A model generated the notes under the pieces. It worked only from the letters and a program-made list of their open reading frames with translations. It was not told the DNA's origin and did not search any database. Positions 21,448 to 52,015 of a stretch of DNA of 64,000 nucleotides are shown in pieces. The position numbers and the translations under genes are program-made. Positions within the stretch are counted from its first letter, which is position 1, and each line of letters opens with the position of its first letter. The DNA is from a bacterium. Its GTDB lineage: Bacteria > Patescibacteriota > Doudnabacteria > UBA920. Location: positions 837,747 to 901,746 of the forward strand of contig CP064996.1 in assembly GCA_016699995.1 (NCBI GenBank), read 5' to 3'.

Positions 21448-22086
21448 ATGGAAGCTTACGGACTAACCGGAAACATCGGCTGCGGCAAGAGCACAGTAGC
21501 TAAAATACTCGCTAAATTTAAAGGCGTAGCTGTCTTTGACTGCGATCAAATCTCCAAGGAACTTATGTCGAGCGGCAGATACATTAAAGAAATTAATACA
21601 ATTTTACAAGATAATGTATTCGACATCACCCATGGCAACCGTCCCGACCTGCCTAAGATAGCAAAGATAATTTTTAGCCATCCGGAGCGGAAAATGGCTT
21701 TGGAAAAATTTATTCATCCATTTGTATGGCAAGAAGTCGAACAGCAGGTTAATGCCCAGGACGGCAAAAAGCTCTGCGTAGTCGAATCGGCGATTATCTT
21801 CGAAACCAGAAATCAGGACAGATTTACAGATATCATTACCGTAACATGCAATCAGGTAGAACAGCTGCGGCGCTTAAGAGAAAATCGCAAGATGAGTGAG
21901 GACCAAATCAAAGCGCGCATCGTTCAGCAAGTCCCTTCTAGCTATAAAGAAAAAAATGCTAGATATGTGATTAACACTGACTGCAGTCCGGAACAGCTCG
22001 AGCAAAGAGTAGAATCACTTTACCGGCAGCTGCGGTTTCGCAATTGGCGGCAGCTTAAAAATAACTCACGTCTATTTCTGACGTGA
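21448..22086 (+). CDS. coaE: dephospho-CoA kinase
   Basis: YGLTGNIGCGKSTVAKIL P-loop at N-terminus; AGGAGG-like RBS before ATG at 21448. Confidence 0.85.
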   Translation: MEAYGLTGNIGCGKSTVAKILAKFKGVAVFDCDQISKELMSSGRYIKEINTILQDNVFDITHGNRPDLPKIAKIIFSHPERKMALEKFIHPFVWQEVEQQVNAQDGKKLCVVESAIIFETRNQDRFTDIITVTCNQVEQLRRLRENRKMSEDQIKARIVQQVPSSYKEKNARYVINTDCSPEQLEQRVESLYRQLRFRNWRQLKNNSRLFLT

Positions 22087-22524
22087 TTTTTTATATGCTT
22101 CAATGTATTTTTTCACCGACTGATTCTTTAAAACTTGCTGTATAGTTTTTAAATCCAAATCTTCAATTTTCTTAAACCGCAAACAGCTTTTTCCCATATC
22201 CAATTTCTTGCCAGACTTTTTATATCCATCAACCAGCATCTTGTAAGTCTTTGGGTCGCCGTATACCGTCATTAGATACAAAGCGTAATAATTTTTTTGA
22301 ACCGCCAGACCCATAAAAGGCAATGGCTGCTTTGGATCATTTAAATAGCCTTCGGGAAATATTTTTAGCGGGACAGAATAGCAAATCATTCCCCATTGCA
22401 TAAACTCAGCAACTTCTTTCGGTAAGAAAGATTTCAAATTTTTGCGCACATACTCTATAACAGTTTTCTGCTCTGCTGTTAGCGCTTTGATATATTCACT
22501 GGGAGTCTTGGCTTTTGATTGCAT
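22072..22524 (-). CDS. DUF1801 (YdhG-like) domain protein
   Basis: 151 aa from internal Met of track ORF 22072..22905; the upstream part of that ORF is a spurious translation of the repeat. Confidence 0.6.
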   Translation of the reverse strand: MQSKAKTPSEYIKALTAEQKTVIEYVRKNLKSFLPKEVAEFMQWGMICYSVPLKIFPEGYLNDPKQPLPFMGLAVQKNYYALYLMTVYGDPKTYKMLVDGYKKSGKKLDMGKSCLRFKKIEDLDLKTIQQVLKNQSVKKYIEAYKKSRQK

Positions 22525-22532
22525 AAATGTCT

Positions 22533-22929
22533 TTGGCGGTGTTTTCTGGACGAAGTTCGAACATTTTTTGAGCAAAACCCCCAATAAGGAAGCCAGCCCC
22601 GCCACTGCTCGGAAACCTCGCCACACCACAGAAAAATACTCTTTGCTCTTTTCATTTTGCGCGCGCCCGATTTCTTTTTCTTCTAATGAAAAGAGTATTT
22701 TTCTGCGGTGTTCTGCCTTCCAAGTATTCAGGCAGGTGGCGGGGCTGTCCTCAATTTGATTTCGAAAAGAAAAAGCGGAATTCCCCCCAAACCCCCCTTC
22801 CGCTTTTTCTTTTCTCAAACGGAACGGGAACGGAAGCAGGCGGGCAAAAATTCCTTCCCCCCAACCCCCTTCCTTTTTGCCCGCCTGCTTGGGCTTCGCC
22901 CCCAAAACTTTTCGGCGGGACGGCGGGAC
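22533..22929. repeat. IR1-L: 397-bp GC-rich structured repeat, inverted copy of 30380..30776
   Basis: Base-by-base comparison: reverse complement matches the 30380..30776 copy with about 3 mismatches; nested palindromes and C-tract loops. Confidence 0.9.
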
Positions 22930-25625
22930 TATTTAATATTAAGCTTTTCACCTCTTTTTTCAAATGCCTCTTTTCCGCCTTCAAGTTTTAGCAATTCCTC
23001 TCTGTTTTTTGTGTCCTCAATTGTCGTTTCAATAACTTCCGTTTGCCCCGATTCATTTTTCAAAATGAAAATTTTCTCTGCATCTCCGTTGATTACAAAA
23101 TTTGCGTTATGGGTGGCAAAAATGATTTGGCGATCTGATTTTTTCTCTTTCAACAAAGGCACAAGATAATTCGCAATCAACGAGCTATCAAGATGAGCCT
23201 CTGGCTCATCAATAATTAGCGGATAATTCCCAAACAAAAGTAAAATCACAACTACCGCCGTACATCTTTGTCCGAAAGACGCTTGTTCAACATCTCGATT
23301 GTCATATTTGACTTGGATTATTTTGTTTAGCTTCACATCGTACAAATGTTTATCCCTAATTGCCTGAAAGATTTGAAAATTTTTCTCTTCCTTAAAAACC
23401 TCATCAAGAAATTTGGTGTATTTTTTATCGCTCTTCTGGGATTGTTGGATAATTTTTCTAACATCGTCAAATGAGTTTTTGGAAAAAGTTTGCTCATTGC
23501 CCGTTATAAATTCGCACACTTCTTTGCCTCGTTCCGTATCGTGGTACTTTGTGAAAAAATAATTGTAAAACTCTTCTGCCAGAGCAACCCAAGCACCTTT
23601 TTCGTTGAAAGAATATTCGAGTGAAATTTGCTTGATATCTTTCCCTTGATTGTCTTCAAACTGTTTCTTCAATAAATCCTGCAAGGGTTTCAATATCTCG
23701 GTAATTTTTGTTTCGTAATTTTGTTTATTTGTGCTTAATCCAGCGACAACATTTTCGAGCGTTGCAAGCACTTTTGTTTTTGCCTCAATTTGAGCGGTTA
23801 AGCTCTTAATTTCGCTTTCCAAGTTCGTTATTTTTTGTGGAGCGGATTTGATCTGCTCAACGCTTTCGGGAGTATAACCAGCTTTCTCAATTAGTGTCTT
23901 GGCTTTAGCTTCCAATTCTGTCAGAGCTTTTTTGATCTCCGATTCTTTCTTTGCTTCCTCTGCAAACTTTTCTTCTTTCAATAATTCAACCGCTTCAGCA
24001 ATCTTGGCTACTGCAAGGTCATAGGCTTTTTCGTATTCAGTTTTTTCAACTTCTTCTTTTGATTCTTCAGATTCAGATTCTGGAATTAGATCAGACAGTG
24101 AATTTTTAAGATCAGATATATTTTCTTTCCAATCTTCTAACTCCTGCAACTCTTTTGATTTATCTGTAATTCCAGTAATAACCTCGTTATATTCTTTGCT
24201 CGATAATACTTTAACGCTACTTTCAAGCGTCCTTTTTTCTTTTTCTTTTGCAATTTTTTGATCCTCAAGAGTTTTCAAATCAGAAACGGCTTGAATAATT
24301 TGACCAAGTTTGCCTTTCAAGGATTCAATTTCTTCCTCGTATTCCTCTAAAATATTACCTGCGTGCGAATTAGCTCTGTCATAAATTGCTTGCGTAAATT
24401 TAGATTTATCCCGCGCAAAAGTTTCTATTTCGCTTTGAGCTAAAAATTCAAAAATTTCAGTTCCGCCAAAGGAAAAAATATTGTTGTCATTCGGATCAAA
24501 AGAGGGGCTTAAATTATTCCAAAACTTTTTTGGAGAATCGGGGTTGTTTGAATGCAATCCCAGAAAATTCAAAATAGTGCTTTTTCCTGATCCTCTACCA
24601 CCGATAAAACAATTAAAATATGGGCTTAAGTTATATGAGCCGTTATTCCCAGCAAAACAAAACTTATCTTCGCCAACTTTTGCGTCGGTAGGAATTTTTA
24701 GAGTAATTGTGTCAATCGTGTTTATCGGCTTTTTTGGTTTTTCCTCACCAATAAAAATTCTTGTTTCTGGCTCATAAACAATTTGCTTCAATCCCTCAAA
24801 TGTTGGCTCGGCTTTAATCCAGCAATATTTTTCAATCGGTTTTGAATCTTTATCCTTTAGCTTTCCAATTGGATAATCTTGAGCGTGTGAATCGCTTCCT
24901 TTTATACAAGCCTTTTTTCGTAAAAACCAACCGCGAAACTGATCTTGTGTAAATTTTACAGTTCCGTCAGTTTTCAAATCAGATTTCCAAAGGAAAAAAT
25001 CAATTTGTTTTTGTCGTGAAGAACCTAAAACATCAGCAGTTCTTATGTAATTACTCTTTATCCACTCATCTGAATTCGGATCAATTTCATCAATACCGCC
25101 GTATTCATCATACGGAAGCCACAATAAAAATTTATCCTTAAATTTTTCGTCCTGGTTTAATTCAGTTAGCAAAGAACCGAGGGAGATTTTCTTATCTTTC
25201 AGTTTGGCTTTGTCATCATAATCGCCACTGATTTTTGTTCCGTTGCTTTTCAACCCCTTAATTAAATTTTCAATGTCAGCAATTTGTATTTGGTCATCAA
25301 AAATAATATGAAAATTGAAATGAGTTGCCCCGTTTGTTGTGGTGTTTTTGTTTTGTACGCTTTCAGTCATTCGAAATTCAACAACGGGCAGGATTTTCTT
25401 ACCGCCAACATCTAAATCGCCCTTGTCGATTTTTTCTTTGATTTGTTTGTATCCTGCTACTGAAAAATAATCATTTATCCCAATAACATCACAATCAGCG
25501 TTTTTCAGTTGAGTTTCAAATTGATCCCAAGTACCAGAAAAGCCGTCAGAAGCAGGGCTATGCACATGCAAATCCCATTTTCTCCATTCGGAGCCGATAT
25601 TTGGTTTTGGAATCTTACTGCTCAT
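22929..25625 (-). CDS. PHP-domain phosphoesterase fused to Rad50/SMC-like ABC ATPase with long coiled-coil insert
   Basis: 898 aa; N-terminal PHP-like WDLHVHSPASDG..VIGINDY; Walker A GGRGSGKST; about 400 aa coiled coil; C-terminal signature ASFGQR, Walker B LIIDEPEAHLD, H-loop IFATHNANF. Confidence 0.8.
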   Translation of the reverse strand: MSSKIPKPNIGSEWRKWDLHVHSPASDGFSGTWDQFETQLKNADCDVIGINDYFSVAGYKQIKEKIDKGDLDVGGKKILPVVEFRMTESVQNKNTTTNGATHFNFHIIFDDQIQIADIENLIKGLKSNGTKISGDYDDKAKLKDKKISLGSLLTELNQDEKFKDKFLLWLPYDEYGGIDEIDPNSDEWIKSNYIRTADVLGSSRQKQIDFFLWKSDLKTDGTVKFTQDQFRGWFLRKKACIKGSDSHAQDYPIGKLKDKDSKPIEKYCWIKAEPTFEGLKQIVYEPETRIFIGEEKPKKPINTIDTITLKIPTDAKVGEDKFCFAGNNGSYNLSPYFNCFIGGRGSGKSTILNFLGLHSNNPDSPKKFWNNLSPSFDPNDNNIFSFGGTEIFEFLAQSEIETFARDKSKFTQAIYDRANSHAGNILEEYEEEIESLKGKLGQIIQAVSDLKTLEDQKIAKEKEKRTLESSVKVLSSKEYNEVITGITDKSKELQELEDWKENISDLKNSLSDLIPESESEESKEEVEKTEYEKAYDLAVAKIAEAVELLKEEKFAEEAKKESEIKKALTELEAKAKTLIEKAGYTPESVEQIKSAPQKITNLESEIKSLTAQIEAKTKVLATLENVVAGLSTNKQNYETKITEILKPLQDLLKKQFEDNQGKDIKQISLEYSFNEKGAWVALAEEFYNYFFTKYHDTERGKEVCEFITGNEQTFSKNSFDDVRKIIQQSQKSDKKYTKFLDEVFKEEKNFQIFQAIRDKHLYDVKLNKIIQVKYDNRDVEQASFGQRCTAVVVILLLFGNYPLIIDEPEAHLDSSLIANYLVPLLKEKKSDRQIIFATHNANFVINGDAEKIFILKNESGQTEVIETTIEDTKNREELLKLEGGKEAFEKRGEKLNIK

Positions 25626-25627
25626 AT

Positions 25628-27463
25628 TTATTCTGAAAAAATTTTCACTTTTATATCTTCCTTGAGTTTATGTATTGAATTTTCATATTCCTTTATTTGA
25701 TTTTCTCTTTCTTCAATCTTTTTCATTATCTTTTTTTGTACTTCCATTGGAGGTAACGGAAAACTAAAATTTTGGATTGCACCTAATTTGATATACGCCA
25801 TAGTATTTCCCAGTTTTTGTTGTAGAACAGAATCTTTCAAAGTGTTCTTTAACACGAAATATAAGTATTTAGGTTCAATATTAACAAAATCAGTTAGAAC
25901 ATATGTTCTTTGGTATGCTTCAAATTTACCCTTAAAATAAGTTACTGTGCCAACATCTCCGTTGCCTGCTATAAGTATCGCTTCTGCATCAAATGAAAAA
26001 ACATCACTATAAGTATGATTTTGGGCGCAAGTAAAAAAAGGGTACTTTCCATTTGGATTGCCTTCATTAACATTTTTCTTTCCCGTTCTTATTTTGCAAA
26101 TGTCGCCAAGTTTAACGCTTTCCCACTTACTTTTTCCTCGGTGGTCAGTTTGAAAATATGTTTTGTAATTTAGACTAACTTCACTGTGGTTTAATATCTC
26201 GTCTTTACTTACCCAAAAAACTTTTTTGCTTGGATTCTTTTTGCCATTTTTCCAATCAGTGATTACTTGGAGGGCTTCAGGCAAATCATTTTTTTCTATT
26301 TTTTGTCGTTTTGCACCGAGATCATAGCCGTCTGCTTCAACATTAATAAACAAAATATCTTTAACTTTTTTTGAAATTGAATTGTCAAAAAAAAGTACAC
26401 TTGTTTTAATCGTTGCGGAATATGGATTAAAAATTCCTACTGGCAAAGAAACGATCGCATATAACCCATCTTCTACCATTTTTTTTCTTAACGATTGATT
26501 AGCATTGCTTGTTTGAAACATTATTCCCTCAGGGACTACAATTCCACCTCGACCACTGATATTTAAATGTTCTATGATGTAATCAACAAACAAAACTTCT
26601 GCACGATTTGCCTGTATAGAAAATCGCTTGTGTGGCACTACTCCTCCACGAGGTGTCATAAAAGGAGGATTTGCCATTATCACATCAAAAGTTTCGTCCC
26701 AACGCTTTTCACTGGTCAGCGAATCATACTCGTGAATTTTTGGCTCTGGGAATCCGTGCAGATACATATTCACAAGCGCCAATTTCACCATATCAGGCGA
26801 AATATCATAGCCTGCCAAATTATTCATCAATTTTAATTTTTCGTCTGGCGTGAGCGGTTTTTCTTTGTTGGTTTTCAAAATGTGCTTGTAGGCAGAAATC
26901 AAAAATCCAGCCGTTCCGCAAGCGGGATCAAGAATTGTTTCGTTCTTTTTTGGATCAACAACTTCAACAATAAAATCAATAATGTGGCGAGGCGTGCGGA
27001 ATTGTCCCGCGTCGCCTTGGCTTCCGAGAATAGAAAGCAAATATTCAAAAGCATTGCCTAAATTTTCGCTGTGTTCGTAATTAAATTCGTTGATCTCTTT
27101 GAGGAATAGCGAAAGCGTGCGAGGGTCGTTGTATGGCAAAAACGCGCCTTTGAAAATATCACGGAACAATTGCGGAATATGCGGATTTTTCGACATATTC
27201 GTAATTGCTTGAACATACAAATCAAGGCGTTCTTGCCCCGAAAGTTTATTGTCCAAAAGTTTCGTCCAAGCGTATTGCGAAAATCCGTTGGCGAAAAATT
27301 TTGCCTCTCCGCCGAGTTCTTCAGATTCCTTGTCCATATCGTCCATAAACTTATAGACAAGAGCGGTCGTGATTTGTTCAACTTGAGCTTTTGGGTCTGG
27401 CACTTTACCGACAAGAATTTGTCGGGCAGAGTCTAGTTTTCGTTTTGTAGTTTGATCAAGCAT
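25628..27463 (-). CDS. hsdM: N6-adenine DNA methyltransferase (HsdM-like) fused to a single target-recognition domain
   Basis: 611 aa; AdoMet motif DPACGTAGFL, catalytic NPPF; C-terminal HsdS-like TRD plus coiled-coil tail. Confidence 0.85.
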   Translation of the reverse strand: MLDQTTKRKLDSARQILVGKVPDPKAQVEQITTALVYKFMDDMDKESEELGGEAKFFANGFSQYAWTKLLDNKLSGQERLDLYVQAITNMSKNPHIPQLFRDIFKGAFLPYNDPRTLSLFLKEINEFNYEHSENLGNAFEYLLSILGSQGDAGQFRTPRHIIDFIVEVVDPKKNETILDPACGTAGFLISAYKHILKTNKEKPLTPDEKLKLMNNLAGYDISPDMVKLALVNMYLHGFPEPKIHEYDSLTSEKRWDETFDVIMANPPFMTPRGGVVPHKRFSIQANRAEVLFVDYIIEHLNISGRGGIVVPEGIMFQTSNANQSLRKKMVEDGLYAIVSLPVGIFNPYSATIKTSVLFFDNSISKKVKDILFINVEADGYDLGAKRQKIEKNDLPEALQVITDWKNGKKNPSKKVFWVSKDEILNHSEVSLNYKTYFQTDHRGKSKWESVKLGDICKIRTGKKNVNEGNPNGKYPFFTCAQNHTYSDVFSFDAEAILIAGNGDVGTVTYFKGKFEAYQRTYVLTDFVNIEPKYLYFVLKNTLKDSVLQQKLGNTMAYIKLGAIQNFSFPLPPMEVQKKIMKKIEERENQIKEYENSIHKLKEDIKVKIFSE

Positions 27464-27473
27464 AATTTTTTGG

Positions 27474-29990
27474 TTACCTCATATAAACATTAACGGGAAC
27501 ATAGTCTTTCACATATTCAGGGACAGTTTCCCGCCAGCCGTTTAATTCCTTAAATTCCGACATTGTAAATCCAGCGTACACATTCAATTCCGCAAATTGT
27601 TTTTTGTTGATAATCTCGCGAAATTTTTCGTCTGTAACATACGCTTTCAGATAATTTTTGATATGCGGAACATATTTGCTTTCGGGCTTGTAGATTGAGA
27701 TAAACTTTTCGCATTCTTCTTCCAGTTTTTCGTCTTTGGATTTGAAAACATCAATCAAGCCGAAAGCTCTTTCCAAAAATTCACGCCAAGAAATACGGCG
27801 ATCAAGATTTTCGCTCTTGCGGATTTTTTCAAGATTCAGGAATAATTGCGGTTTGTCTTCGTATTTGTCGCGCATAATCTGCACGGCTTTGTCCCATTGC
27901 TCATTTTCCACGGCAGATTTTACTTCCGTGTCTTTTTGCAATTCTTCACGGGCTTTTTCAAAAAGTTTGCGATCAACTTTCATTCCCTCGATTCCGACAG
28001 GCGTTTCGGTAAGGGATTTTACTTTGTCGGGATTAAAAACTTCTATTTCATCAATATCAACGCCGACAGGTCCCTCTCCGCCAGTTCCTTTTTGTTTGAT
28101 TGGTAATTGCAAAATCTCGTCATAATCAAACTTTTCTTCAAAGTATTCGCAGTTTGCGAAGAAATCGAAAAATTTGAAATGATCTTTTGGCTTTTTGTGT
28201 TTCTCGCCATATTCGTCGGTATATTCAAAAGTGAATTTTCTTGTGCCTCGTCCTTTGATCTGAATAAAATCAGTCGGCGAAAAGATTGGGCGCATAAGCG
28301 CAAGATTCAAAATATCTTGGCAATCATAACCAGTCGTCATCATTCCGACAGTTACGCAAATTCTCGTTTTGCTGGATTTGTAGTTTTCCAAAAACTTGGT
28401 GTGTCCGTTTAGGTTGTTGTTGGCAAAATTGATTGTGAATTGCTGGCTGTCCGCAATATTTGAGGTGATTTGCACGGCAAAATCGGAATTGTATTTGTCG
28501 GGCCAAAGTTGGCTCGCCATTTGGTTGAGCGTTTGCGTTATTTTGGAAGCGTGCTTTTGACTGACGCAAAAGACAATAGTTTTGCCGATTTCACCGCTTA
28601 TCGGGTCTTTAAGAGAATTTTCAATGAGTGTCTGGCAAAAGACGCGATTTGTTTTTTCGGAAAAGAATTTCTTTTCAAAATCCTTTTGGAAAAATGTTTC
28701 TTCACTTTCTGTGCCATTCTCATCTTCAACCATAACCGCATAGCCCTTTTCCGATAGCAATTCGGTAGTGATGTCGGTTCGCGCGTCTGAAACGATAGGG
28801 TTGATCAAAAATCCTTCCTTTACGCCGTCAAGCAAACTGAAACGGAAAGTCGGCTCGCCATTTTTACAGCCAAAAGTCGTATAAGTGTCCAAGAGTTGCC
28901 GTCTTTCCCAAGCTCGTGGGTCTTTTTGTGATAATTTTTGCGGATCAACATTTTTCAAATAATCTTTCGGTGTTGCGGTTAAGCCCAATTTGTAGCCGAT
29001 AAAATATTCAAAAACTGCTCGCGAGTTTCCGCCTATTGCTCGGTGTGATTCATCGGCGATAATCAAATCAAAATCAGTCGGCGAGAAAAGTTTTTTATAT
29101 TTATCTTGCGCCGAAAGACTTTGAACTGTTGAAATGACAATTTCCGCTTTTTTCCAGTCGTCGCGGTTTTGCTTGTAAATAACAGAAGAAAAGTCATTGC
29201 TCAAATAGCGGACAAAGTTTTTATGGGCTTGGTCTTCCAATTCTAAACGATCAACCAAAAACAGAATTCTTTTAGCGTTGCCTGTTCGTAAAAACAGTTT
29301 GATAACGGCGGCGGAAATTAGAGTTTTTCCTGTGCCTGTCGCCATTTCAAAAAGAAAGCGATCATTTCCAGCTTCGGCGGACTTTTGCAAGGCGTGAATT
29401 GCTTTGAGTTGATACGGGCGCAAAATTCGCAAATTTTCGTCCCAAAGATATTGTTCACGAGTATCTTCTTTCTGATAACGAGGATCGTCTTTGAAATTTG
29501 GATTTTGCGTGAGGGCGATATAATCATCATTGACTTCCTCGTCTGCTAAACGCTGATTGTTGGGCTTAAAATCCTGCCTGTGCTTCAAAGATTCTTGCGT
29601 TGGAAATTCTGTGATAATTTCAGGATCGCCTCGTTCCAAATCCCAAAAATAATGAAGGTTGCCGTTTGAGAGAATTACAAAACGGGCGTTTTCAGTGTGA
29701 GCGTATTTTCTGGCTTGTTCTTTTCCGTCCAGTGGGTTTTTGTCTTCTTTTTTGGCTTCCAGAATAACGAGCGGGAAACCTTTTTCATCGAGCAATAAAA
29801 AATCAATAAAGCCGTTTTTTGTGGATTCAAAATCTTCACCAAAAGCGTCAATGTCTTTTTGGGTAAGTTTTACATTCGGTTCAAGCGAAATGTTTGCTTG
29901 TCCTTTTTCATTATCAAAAAATCGCCAGCCTGCTTGTTCAAGCAGTTTGTTTATTTTTATTCGCGCTTTTGCTTCTTTAGTATTTGCCAT
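27474..29990 (-). CDS. hsdR: restriction endonuclease R subunit (HsdR-like: PD-(D/E)xK nuclease + SF2 helicase)
   Basis: 838 aa; N-terminal nuclease FIDFLLLDEKGFPLVILEAKK; helicase motif I EMATGTGKT, motif II LIIADESHR. Confidence 0.85.
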   Translation of the reverse strand: MANTKEAKARIKINKLLEQAGWRFFDNEKGQANISLEPNVKLTQKDIDAFGEDFESTKNGFIDFLLLDEKGFPLVILEAKKEDKNPLDGKEQARKYAHTENARFVILSNGNLHYFWDLERGDPEIITEFPTQESLKHRQDFKPNNQRLADEEVNDDYIALTQNPNFKDDPRYQKEDTREQYLWDENLRILRPYQLKAIHALQKSAEAGNDRFLFEMATGTGKTLISAAVIKLFLRTGNAKRILFLVDRLELEDQAHKNFVRYLSNDFSSVIYKQNRDDWKKAEIVISTVQSLSAQDKYKKLFSPTDFDLIIADESHRAIGGNSRAVFEYFIGYKLGLTATPKDYLKNVDPQKLSQKDPRAWERRQLLDTYTTFGCKNGEPTFRFSLLDGVKEGFLINPIVSDARTDITTELLSEKGYAVMVEDENGTESEETFFQKDFEKKFFSEKTNRVFCQTLIENSLKDPISGEIGKTIVFCVSQKHASKITQTLNQMASQLWPDKYNSDFAVQITSNIADSQQFTINFANNNLNGHTKFLENYKSSKTRICVTVGMMTTGYDCQDILNLALMRPIFSPTDFIQIKGRGTRKFTFEYTDEYGEKHKKPKDHFKFFDFFANCEYFEEKFDYDEILQLPIKQKGTGGEGPVGVDIDEIEVFNPDKVKSLTETPVGIEGMKVDRKLFEKAREELQKDTEVKSAVENEQWDKAVQIMRDKYEDKPQLFLNLEKIRKSENLDRRISWREFLERAFGLIDVFKSKDEKLEEECEKFISIYKPESKYVPHIKNYLKAYVTDEKFREIINKKQFAELNVYAGFTMSEFKELNGWRETVPEYVKDYVPVNVYMR

Positions 29991-29994
29991 AGTT

Positions 29995-30204
29995 TTATTT
30001 CATTAAATCATCAAGGGAAACGCCGAGGGCGTCCGCGATTTTTTTGACTGTATCAATGGTGGGGTTGGGAGTAGAGCCAGCTTCAATCTTGGCGATTGTA
30101 TGAAAAGCCAAATCCGCCTTTTTTGAAAGCTGATCTTGCGAAATGCCGAGCTTGTTTCGGTATTTCTTTATATTGTCGCCAATTGTGGATTTTTCGTTTG
30201 ACAT
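29995..30204 (-). CDS. XRE-family HTH regulator (candidate controller protein of the restriction operon)
   Basis: 69 aa; HTH LGISQDQLSKKADLAFHTIAKIE; first gene of the tightly packed operon. Confidence 0.8.
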   Translation of the reverse strand: MSNEKSTIGDNIKKYRNKLGISQDQLSKKADLAFHTIAKIEAGSTPNPTIDTVKKIADALGVSLDDLMK

Positions 30205-30263
30205 AATCGTATAGTTTTACTATTATAGTTGTATAGTATTAAAAACATCACTGATTTATAGTT

Positions 30264-30292
30264 AGTATATGGAATTTTTATCAATTAGTCAA
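30264..30292 (-). promoter_or_regulatory. sigma70-like promoter candidate for the controller-hsdR-hsdM-PHP/ABC operon (TTGACT, 17-nt spacer, TATACT)
   Basis: Hexamers on minus strand about 60 nt upstream of HTH start; leader contains ACTATA direct/inverted repeats. Confidence 0.35.
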
Positions 30293-30379
30293 ACAAAATT
30301 AGGGAGTTCCTTTGATATAACGCGCGCACGGGTGGGTGGGGCAAGCGTTATTCCTCTTTTATCCTCTCTTTTGTTTTCT

Positions 30380-30776
30380 GTCCCGCCGTCCCGCCGAAAA
30401 GTTTTGGGGGCGAAGCCCAAGCAGGCGGGCAAAAAGGAAGGGGGTTGGGGGGAAGGAATTTTTGCCCGCCTGCTTCCGATCCCGTTCCGTTTGAGAAAAG
30501 AAAAAGCGGAAGGGGGGTTTGGGGGGAATTCCGCTTTTCCTTTTCGAAATCAAATTGTGGACAGCCCCGCCACCTGCCTGAATACTTGGAAGGCAGAACA
30601 CCGCAGAAAAATACTCTTTTCATTAGAAGAAAAAGAAATCGGGCGCGCGCAAAATGAAAAGAGCAAAGAGTATTTTTCTGTGGTGTGGCGAGGTTTCCGA
30701 GCAGTGGCGGGGCTGGCTTCCTTATTGGGGGTTTTGCTCAAAAAATGTTCGAACTTCGTCCAGAAAACACCGCCAA
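30380..30776. repeat. IR1-R: 397-bp GC-rich structured repeat, inverted copy of 22533..22929
   Basis: Two long hairpins with G-tract loops (GGGGGTTGGGGGG and GGGGGGTTTGGGGGG) plus a 14-bp-arm palindrome GAAAAATACTCTTT..AAAGAGTATTTTTC. Confidence 0.9.
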
Positions 30777-30903
30777 TTTTCACTTTTTGTGAAATCGTAA
30801 GGAATTGCCTCGGCGCAAAGCGCCTCGGCATGGTATTTTTCCGCAATTTTGAAGGCATTTTTGAAATCCAAAAACAAAGTGCGGTCGGCAATGCGGAAGT
30901 TCG
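30770..30903. repeat. IR2-L: 134-bp repeat, inverted copy of 32387..32520; overlaps IR1-R by the heptamer CCGCCAA
   Basis: Exact reverse-complement match to the recombinase 3' end / tRNA-Ser junction copy. Confidence 0.85.
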
Positions 30904-31017
30904 CAGAGCGAAGCTCTGGCAAAATGAAATTTTGCAAACCAATCTTTTTTCTTTTGCTTTCAGCGAAAGGTTGAGCGCATTTTTCTTTGATTGCCCAAAA
31001 GCTAATCTAAAAACAAT

Positions 31018-32631
<1,614 letters not shown>

Positions 32632-45069: not shown

Positions 45070-45146
45070 GGGCGATTAGCTCAGTTGGTTAGAGCGTCTC
45101 GTTTACACCGAGAAGGCCAAAGGTTCGAATCCTTTATCGCCCACCA
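45070..45146 (+). tRNA. tRNA-Val (anticodon UAC)
   Basis: 77 nt; anticodon stem TCTCG/CGAGA, loop UUUACAC; T-loop GGTTCGAATCC; CCA encoded. Confidence 0.9.
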
Positions 45147-45162
45147 TGCGAAAATTTAATAT

Positions 45163-45448
45163 GCCCTGGTAGCTCAGTGGTAGAGCAGACGCCTGAATCT
45201 TCGGGCCATGCGAGAGTAATTTTGCAATGCAAATCGGGTGAACTCGGGGAACATCTAAATACATTTAGACAATCCCGAGCCAAGCCAAGAACGGGTTAAT
45301 ACTTCTTGGAAGGTGTAGAGACTAGTAGGTGAGCCCAACAATAATCCTACGGATAGCGCCCGACTTCCTTTCCAAAGGAAGATGATATAGTCCAAAATGA
45401 CGCAGGAAGAGCGTCGTGTCGTCAGTTCAATTCTGACCCGGGGCACCA
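45163..45448 (+). tRNA. tRNA-Phe (anticodon GAA) interrupted by a 211-nt group I intron in the anticodon loop
   Basis: 5' exon GCCCTGGTAGCTCAGTGGTAGAGCAGACGCCU; 3' exon GAAGAGCGTCGTGTCGTCAGTTCAATTCTGACCCGGGGCACCA; exons join to a canonical tRNA. Confidence 0.8.
45195..45405 (+). ncRNA. group I self-splicing intron (tRNA-type, IC3-like)
   Basis: Core elements GGTGTAGAGACTAG and GATGATATAGTCC (P7 strands GACUA/UAGUC), GAGCCAAGCC; guide sequence UCUUCGGGC pairs with both exon ends; terminal G precedes 3' exon. Confidence 0.75.
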
Positions 45449-51941: not shown

Positions 51942-52015
51942 GGGGCGGGTCCCTGGTTGGGCAGGATAGACTCGTCACCCTATCCCAGCGGGTTCGATTC
52001 CCGTCCGCTCCACCA
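51942..52015 (+). ncRNA. tRNA-like element with canonical acceptor stem (G3:U70), T-arm and CCA but non-canonical anticodon arm
   Basis: 74 nt; GGGGCGG..GCGGGTTCGATTCCCGT CCGCTCC A CCA; central region folds as 4-6 bp stem with 10-nt loop; partial inverted copy at about 52057..52080. Confidence 0.4.

Follow-up and report, generated by a model that had tools for sequence, protein, structure and literature searches.

A probable large serine recombinase island with an internal inverted attachment site at a tRNA-Ser gene of a Doudnabacteria genome

Bacteria of the candidate phyla radiation (CPR; Patescibacteria) have tiny genomes in which few mobile elements have been recognised, and the spread of defence genes among them is poorly understood. 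One paper on Patescibacteria mentions a type I restriction-modification island, in a text in which the words 'recombinase', 'integrase', 'tRNA' and 'inverted repeat' do not occur (PMC12455944). The tycheposons, the nearest described cargo islands, have tyrosine recombinases in 910 of 937 elements (bioRxiv 10.1101/2020.12.28.424599). Characterised serine integrases recombine the attachment site of the element (attP) only with that of the host (attB) unless a directionality factor is present, do not act on attP with the junction sites attL or attR, and use attP half-sites in which the zinc-ribbon motif lies 5 bp farther out than in attB half-sites (PMC3783163). Here we describe a locus in the window, a 64-kb stretch of contig CP064996.1 (GCA_016699995.1), in which positions 22533-32520 very probably constitute an island of a large serine recombinase (LSR) in a tRNA-Ser gene, with a second, inverted attP in its interior and with long arms that support inversion of its parts, probably by homologous recombination.

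In the arrangement that we propose, the LSR would move the island into the 3' end of tRNA-Ser genes and leave three related junctions, here called S1, S2 and S3. S1 would be attL (host flank | P' arm), S3 would be attR (P arm | tRNA), and S2, located between the cargo and the recombinase gene, would be a complete attP in inverted orientation (P arm | P' arm). A 397-nt inverted repeat would represent the P'-side arm, found at S1 and S2, and a 134-nt inverted repeat the P-side arm, found at S2 and S3. The island would accordingly be made up of two modules held in near-identical inverted arms, one with the cargo and its regulator and the other with the recombinase.

Junctions, repeats and the tRNA-Ser target

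The original prediction had drawn attention to a 397-bp inverted repeat with about three mismatches around a defence operon, and a repeat search confirms it: arm A (22533-22929, plus strand) is the reverse complement of arm A' (30380-30776, minus strand) over 397 nt at 99% identity with 7450 nt between them, and global alignment gives exactly three differences (offsets 218, 237 and 297, counted from the outer end; approximately 22751, 22770 and 22830). A second inverted repeat had been overlooked. Its copies B (30770-30903, minus strand) and B' (32387-32520, plus strand) are 134 nt long and 100% identical and bracket the recombinase gene, and B overlaps the right arm A' by 7 nt (TTGGCGG or its complement). 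B, the P arm, repeats in inverse orientation the final 134 nt of the recombinase gene as far as the core. B' comprises the 3' coding end of that gene and the P half-site, and its right boundary coincides with the 3' end of a tRNA-Ser(cga) gene that is read from the other strand (32515-32604, minus strand; tRNA searches); this tRNA gene is the integration target and the B' half-site. We therefore place the island at 22533-32520, with its true right end at the tRNA-Ser gene, and hold this delimitation with good confidence. The proposal that the 397-bp copies are the terminal repeats of a mobile cassette holds for the left copy, which is the left end of the island, and fails for the right copy, which is internal and lies beside the recombinase gene.

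The core TTGGCGG stands at each of the three junctions. At S1 (22533-22539, plus strand), the attL crossover region, the host flank on the left meets the island on the right; at S2 (30770-30776, minus strand), A', core and B make up a complete inverted attP; and at S3 (32514-32520, plus strand), the attR site, the island provides the discriminator base and CCA of the tRNA. Read across, S1 (22532/22533) is flank-core-A, the reverse complement of S2 (30776) is B'-core-A, and S3 (32520/32521) is B'-core-tRNA. This three-junction geometry is the one expected if a circle with attP = B'|A had integrated into attB = flank|tRNA, plus the extra inverted attP at S2, and the empty site is predicted to read ...AAATGTCTTTGGCGGAGAGGCAGGG. 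The same three-junction pattern was found in 21 aligned elements, with the common core reduced to CGG or GCGG; CGG, in which the crossover falls, corresponds as reverse complement to the discriminator base and the last two bases of the acceptor stem. The left flanks of the 21 elements are unrelated host DNA, often gene starts or terminator-like hairpins. Immediately left of S1, about 5 nt outside arm A, lies the start of a host DUF1801 gene (22525-22527). Host genes also start 0-11 nt from the attL core in five related loci (L019, L046, L021, L052 and L079).

The half-sites follow the rule known from serine integrases. The conserved outer end of A, CGGTGTTTTTTGnnnGAnGTTCGAAC, is found twice per complete element, on the plus strand at S1 and on the minus strand at S2, and the P'-type recombinase half-site CGGTGTTTTCTGGACGAAGTTCGAAC is located at 22537-22562 (plus strand). 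Its TTCGAAC motif stands 5 bp farther from the core than in the tRNA half-site, the distance from TTCGAAC to CGG being 16 nt in A and 11 nt in the T-loop of the tRNA, which matches the 5-bp difference between attP and attB (PMC3783163).

The recombinase (31018-32631, plus strand; 537 aa) has the Resolvase, Recombinase and Zn_ribbon_recom domains (PF00239, PF07508 and PF13408, all above cut-offs). Its homologues number in the thousands, with a best identity of 93%, and its similarity to characterised integrases is very distant (E ~1e-6 to the A118 integrase, and far below the CcrB and XisF cut-offs). The last 37 codons of its gene traverse the whole tRNA-Ser gene in antisense, so that the protein gains 37 residues encoded by tRNA sequence. 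In the attP configuration the protein would instead end in ...KSENWRCFLDEVRTFFEQNPQ, with a TAA stop at 22585-22587, about 50 nt into arm A, so that integration, or a flip of the recombinase module, would alter the C-terminus; the second form is present in a relative, L121. A downstream tRNA was resolved in 87 elements and is tRNA-Ser in 80 of them (cga 27, gct 24, gga 17, tga 12), with a few B' arms adjoining tRNA genes for Gln, Asp, Glu or Trp. Free tRNA-Ser genes in the same loci end ...CTCCGCCA and continue into unrelated sequence, whereas occupied ones run into B'. By its domain set, the short common core flanked by B|P' and P|B', and the 5-bp half-site shift, the locus qualifies as a serine-integrase genomic island.

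Relatives of the island and inversion of its modules

A scan of 185,579 one-per-species GTDB genomes gave at least 510 relatives, of which 80 loci were fetched, and metagenome contigs gave 551 more relatives (80 loci fetched), to which exact-protein look-ups added 3 loci and three further look-ups 17. The hosts are CPR/Patescibacteria of many classes (recombinase identity 84-95%) and Elusimicrobiota (about 60%), and the element type was seen at all four tRNA-Ser isoacceptors across many CPR classes, with recombinases of 85-95% identity shared between different classes. Such islands, able to occupy any tRNA-Ser gene, thus appear to be a very widespread vehicle of defence genes in CPR bacteria. 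More than 50 independent assemblies show the layout A-cargo-A'|B-recombinase-B'|tRNA-Ser, which is present at essentially every locus with enough flanking sequence, including contigs of 0.4-1.06 Mb (L001, L021, L028, L029, L121 and L123). Of 175 recombinase copies, 133 were found to have a B pair, and of the CPR-type copies resolved on both sides, 57 show A' upstream and a tRNA downstream. Elements also form tandem arrays, in which new arrivals insert between the resident element and the tRNA (L027, L006, L105 and L089). A scan of viral contigs gave a single, incomplete and distant relative, which argues that the island is not a phage.

Two further arrangements were observed among the relatives. 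The 1.06-Mb contig of GCA_040772285.1 carries two islands of the family at neighbouring tRNA-Ser genes, tga and gct (L001:775-11587), one with a DpnII-type restriction-modification system and the other with a Na/Ca exchanger, an MFS transporter and GreA. At L024:9669-11587 (= L131), a recombinase module lies between identical inverted tRNA-Ser(gga) genes with different upstream flanks, either as the product of attP and a second attB or as an assembly path through collapsed B arms.

The two arms of a pair evolve in concert. The arms of one element match at about 99% (A/A' as well as B/B'), whereas comparison between elements yields median identities of 77% for B and 55% for the first 150 nt of A. 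This bears out active recombination, one of the causes that had been suggested for the near-identity of the copies. In arm pairs of low identity the differences are clustered, as in mosaics formed when variants of the element recombine. Arm identity showed no gradient with distance from the core.

Both modules can invert, the cargo more often than the recombinase. Usually the helix-turn-helix (HTH) regulator gene of the cargo lies beside A', on the strand opposite to the recombinase gene, and the cargo is flipped in L038/L085, L042, L099 and L113. L085 and L087 encode an identical recombinase protein and have opposite cargo orientations, with arms of 317 nt. L089/L093 and L090-L095 likewise share an identical recombinase and show both cargo orientations across samples; here the local repeat measures just 56 nt at 89% identity, and the crossover falls within a stretch of 27 identical nt in the innermost part of A. 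A repeat this short and divergent cannot be collapsed by assembler k-mers, so this inversion is real. The recombinase module is inverted in L121:9671-11560 (543-kb contig Ga0074195_1000010), which reads tRNA-Ser(gga)(+)|B-recombinase-B'|A with the recombinase gene downstream of the tRNA and co-directional with it; its B arms are variants near the core and 86% identical. The same inversion possibly occurred in L035 and L153. The question posed by the original prediction, whether the segment is an inversion switch, can thus be answered in part: both orientations are found among relatives, while a status as a switch does not follow from inversions that are seen in relatives only.

Inversion and homogenisation of the arms were probably brought about by homologous recombination between the arms rather than by the LSR. 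The crossover between L089 and L090 lies far from the core, in an arm without a half-site; hybrid arms point to crossovers inside the arms; and characterised serine integrases join only attP and attB when no directionality factor is supplied. An origin of the whole arrangement by simple tandem insertion followed by inversion was considered, and it needs illegitimate breakpoints. A folded single-strand (dumbbell) attP as the substrate was rejected because cleavage of such a stem by a serine recombinase would produce chromosome ends capped by hairpins.

Control of the recombinase, arm structure and cargo

Between the first cargo gene and A', a spacer (30205-30379; about 80% conservation in L001) holds a divergent pair of sigma-70-like promoters. 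The plus-strand match (30198-30226) faces A', B and the recombinase gene, and the minus-strand match (30292-30264) faces the HTH gene and the cargo; each is a match to the consensus only. The plus-strand promoter ends 43 nt ahead of the ATG of a leader open frame (30269-31030, plus strand), which runs for 253 codons through the spacer, A' and B and overlaps the ATG of the recombinase gene by 13 nt. Annotated as 'hypothetical protein' in 759 database clusters, this frame is free of stops in 13 of 17 CPR-type elements, in which the other two frames contain 2-8 stops. Third codon positions in it show no excess of substitutions, the lengths of its indels are not multiples of three, and it matches no Pfam or NCBIfam family. 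A conserved protein such as a directionality factor was therefore rejected for the frame, which has neither a family match nor a substitution pattern of the coding type. Because the frame is kept open while a codon-position bias is absent, translation through the leader may be under selection and the peptide not. The same open frame is also present in the left arm (22072-22905, minus strand), where it runs in-frame into the host DUF1801 gene.

Since the promoter and the leader ATG sit inside the invertible cargo segment, a flip of the cargo would be expected to cut off the recombinase gene from the promoter and the leader start that lie upstream of it. One could then suppose that the arms are a programmed switch, in which the recombinase itself pairs S1 with S2, or S2 with S3, and in which the flips determine when the island moves. 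Each module does lie between inverted sites with full half-sites and core, both orientations occur in nature, the only strong plus-strand promoter match and the leader ATG are inside the invertible cargo, and arm B has a constant length of 134 nt across distant relatives. We nevertheless consider such a switch unlikely, for characterised serine integrases do not join attP to attL or attR (PMC3783163), the L089/L090 crossover took place within 27 nt at the inner end of A with a partner arm that had lost its P' half-site, and hybrid B arms with clustered differences suggest crossovers within the arms and not at the core.

A related and equally tentative proposal, to which we give a low probability, is that the internal attP and the arms form a functional device. 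Flips of the modules would set the transcription of the recombinase gene, from the cargo-borne promoter and leader or else through read-through from the tRNA promoter, and would gate mobility without a directionality factor; equivalently, two inverted attP sites could serve for the exchange of defence-cargo cassettes between CPR genomes.

Several observations weigh against the reading that we prefer, that of an LSR island with an internal inverted attP and with arms that recombine homologously. A scan of metagenome contigs for the predicted flank plus core, as an empty or an occupied site, gave 0 matches, exact-protein look-ups of the recombinase, DUF1801 protein and RNase HII of the window returned no record, and neither an empty site nor a circle was recovered for the window element. 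No candidate for a directionality factor is recognisable in the island. Cargo inversion was observed in relatives and not in the window element, and in L085/L087 the arms exceed the assembler k-mer, so that the orientation of these contigs may be mis-resolved. The recombinase gene is in the canonical orientation in about 57 cases versus 4, although a circle with two equal attP sites predicts parity, and this bias points to selection or a route that is not understood and, like the fixed length of B, hints at a role of the arm as a whole. The length of B remains at 134 nt even in Elusimicrobiota, with about 60% protein identity, which homology-driven homogenisation leaves unexplained and which suggests a function for the whole arm. 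Finally, the two promoter calls are matches to a consensus.

Structure in the arms themselves provides a further alternative. The original prediction had noted hairpins with G-run loops and a palindrome in each copy, and three hairpins are indeed present. The first, h1 (22594-22747), is a long imperfect palindrome with the outer stem CAGCCCCGCCAC/GTGGCGGGGCTG and inner arms of 22 nt that flank GCGCGCGCCC. The second, h2 (22764-22814; GAAAAGAAAAAGCGGAA...TTCCGCTTTTTCTTTTC), has the plus-strand loop CCCCCCAAACCCCCC, an invariant C6-AAA-C6 that reads G6-TTT-G6 on the transcribed strand. The third, h3 (22836-22888; GCAGGCGGGCAAAAA...TTTTTGCCCGCCTGC), also has a C/G-tract loop and behaves as a module, being present in only some relatives and missing in L019, L029 and L001. 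In an alignment of 14 arms, compensatory double changes occur in 21 of 70 predicted pairs and h1 and h2 are maintained; the C/G-tract loops GGGGGGTTTGGGGGG and GGAAGGGGGTTGGGGGGAAGG are invariant in sequence wherever they are present, while the stems covary. The folding energy of the arm lies below that of shuffled controls on both strands (z = -6.0 and -4.1). As had also been noted, the arms are richer in G+C (51%) than the enclosed cargo (37%) and the 64-kb window (42%). The h2 core and the outer-end motif each occur twice in the 64 kb, with 0 occurrences expected by chance. Four tracts of G5-G6 are present on the transcribed strand, two in the loop of each of two stable hairpins that lie about 70 nt from each other.

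Judging from gene orientation, the strand with the G-rich loops would be common to the 3' end of the cargo operon transcript and to the leader of the recombinase mRNA, and the conserved hairpins would act in RNA. From this one could argue that the repeat is mainly a structured nucleic acid, hairpin or G-quadruplex, which serves two transcripts as an RNA stabiliser, an attenuator or a protein site. Covarying stems around invariant loops, natural transcripts that would both carry the same strand, and an open frame kept through the region without conservation of a peptide are all compatible with such a role. Entire hairpin modules, however, vary in presence between elements, wobble pairs favour neither strand (window h1 versus h2), and the arms match no Rfam family, a search of the whole window at gathering scores having returned only tRNAs and one group I intron. 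A terminator scan of 22300-23100 gave no terminator-like sites; the hairpins lack a U tract and their A/T runs lie inside stems. Canonical intrinsic terminators were ruled out for the arm hairpins, as no U tract follows the stems. Of the earlier suggestion of a structured RNA, the conserved structures with compensatory changes thus remain, while an Rfam family and canonical termination do not. A structural role also leaves the B/B' repeat and the half-sites at the arm ends unexplained and would complement the LSR island rather than replace it; as an explanation in its own right we regard it as improbable.

The enclosed 7.45 kb is one minus-strand operon of restriction-modification-like genes and an ATPase, in agreement with the description of a defence operon bracketed by repeats within a mobile island. 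Its first gene encodes a 69-aa HTH_3 regulator (29995-30204; PADLOC 'Control_protein'), followed by an HsdR-like restriction helicase-nuclease (27474-29990; HSDR_N, ResIII and Helicase_C), a fused type I methylase and specificity subunit (25628-27463; N6_Mtase and Methylase_S) and, last, a TrlF-family/AAA_21 ATPase (22929-25625; NF045780, 464 bits), the stop codon of which adjoins the inner end of A. The combination of a TrlF-family ATPase (NCBIfam NF045780, with a PADLOC Ppl-like C-terminus), a single-chain HsdM-HsdS and an HsdR-like protein constitutes an atypical type I-like system. In a scan of 99 open reading frames from 25 elements, the cargo consists mostly of type I, II and III restriction-modification systems or defence-like ATPases and helicases, with occasional non-defence cargo (a Na/Ca exchanger with MFS and GreA in L001; PAP2; HSP70; subtilase). 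The HTH 'control protein' is a conserved backbone gene (21 of 25 elements), and the 25 cargo sets contain no replication genes.

Another idea is that A-cargo-A' is a separate non-autonomous cassette, with the repeats as its true termini, that a recombinase module exchanges in trans. It would account for backbones whose HTH proteins are 94-98% identical and that carry unrelated cargo, and for recombinase modules without an adjacent A' in L024, L035 and L153. In L089 (1787-11610), moreover, a cargo element that lacks a recombinase gene (AAA_13, an Eco57I-like methylase, a PLD-SNF2 helicase and HTH) lies between a resident recombinase module and tRNA-Ser. That element retains a 31-nt P half-site next to the tRNA and about 80 nt of A', which indicates that integration in trans can do without the long arms and S2, and the element is more simply seen as a derivative that arose by deletion and entered through an ordinary attP (p|A). 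All A-cargo-A' units seen lie by a recombinase module or a tRNA, at S2 the P' motif adjoins B in every case, and both ends of the supposed cassette would be P'-type half-sites, a pair used by no known serine-integrase reaction. We consider an independent cassette very unlikely.

An assembly artefact (a fold-back, or the collapsed or mis-joined contigs raised by the original prediction) or an ordinary dispersed miniature inverted-repeat transposable element (MITE) can be dismissed with near certainty: although contigs of relatives often break at the arms, so that assemblers evidently struggle with the repeats, the two copies in the window differ at 3 positions, misassembly is excluded because the nested layout recurs in many independent assemblies from different studies on contigs of up to 1.06 Mb, and a MITE because each element has exactly two copies, with none elsewhere in the 64-kb window, and because the junction cores are inverted rather than direct and are part of att sites.

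Away from the island, the window contains a group I intron (RF00028, 56.9 bits) at 45185-45417, in a tRNA-rich region 39 nt downstream of tRNA-Val(tac) (45070-45146). At 51942-52015, ARAGORN calls a tRNA with a four-base anticodon (cgtc), the identity of which was not assigned and which has no Rfam tRNA match at gathering score.

Comparison with described systems

The nested inverted duplication of the attachment site is absent from the textbook serine-integrase element, and we know of no large serine integrase system with a second, inverted and complete attP and with arms of 134 and 397 nt. In the full-text literature searched, no description was found of the architecture as a whole (an internal inverted attP, long homogenised arms and two invertible modules). 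It raises the questions of how the island is excised without a known directionality factor, why the second attP is retained and whether inversion controls the recombinase. Should the arms and the internal attP prove to be a functional device, they would amount to a novel way of controlling serine-integrase elements, at work in hundreds of uncultivated species. The enzyme may also be of interest for integrase engineering, as its sites suggest a highly conserved 25-bp tRNA half-site together with the acceptance of an arbitrary second half-site.

With the large serine integrases (A118/LI, Bxb1, phiC31 and SPbeta SprA) the island shares the same set of Resolvase, Recombinase and Zn ribbon domains, a short identical core, attP and attB half-sites that are shifted by 5 bp, and the regeneration of the target gene on integration; unlike in those systems, only one attB half-site, that in the tRNA, is conserved here. 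SCCmec Ccr, Tn4451 TnpX and IS607 resemble it in that a serine recombinase, with weak NCBIfam similarity, moves non-replicative cargo, but they have other targets and no long inverted arms, and their enzymes need no additional factor for either excision or integration. Invertons and phase-variable type I loci (PMC7672463) likewise have a segment in inverted repeats with restriction-modification genes beside a recombinase, found in both orientations, and the occurrence of both orientations in natural populations extends to relatives of the island (L085/L087, L089/L093 versus L090-L095, and L121). In contrast to invertons, the arms of the island and its relatives are 150-420 nt long, the operon flips as a unit, alternative hsdS halves are absent, no change of expression or specificity is evident, and the cargo is often not type I restriction-modification.

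The tycheposons are also small, non-conjugative cargo and defence islands beside the tRNA genes of reduced genomes, and also form tandem arrays (bioRxiv 10.1101/2020.12.28.424599), but no nested inverted repeats or internal att copy have been described in them. As in the yeast 2-micron circle (FLP/FRT), the geometry implies that the excised circle would carry two near-identical inverted repeats of about 531 nt, each with the target site, and that these repeats would divide it into two invertible segments, one of them encoding the recombinase. To our knowledge, serine integrases do not recombine attP with attP. The 2-micron circle differs in being a replicon that uses a tyrosine recombinase and inversion for copy-number amplification, whereas no replication gene was found in the island. 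The nearest functional analogue of the island is to be seen in the cargo-carrying tycheposons, and its nearest analogue in geometry is the flip-flop circle of the 2-micron plasmid.

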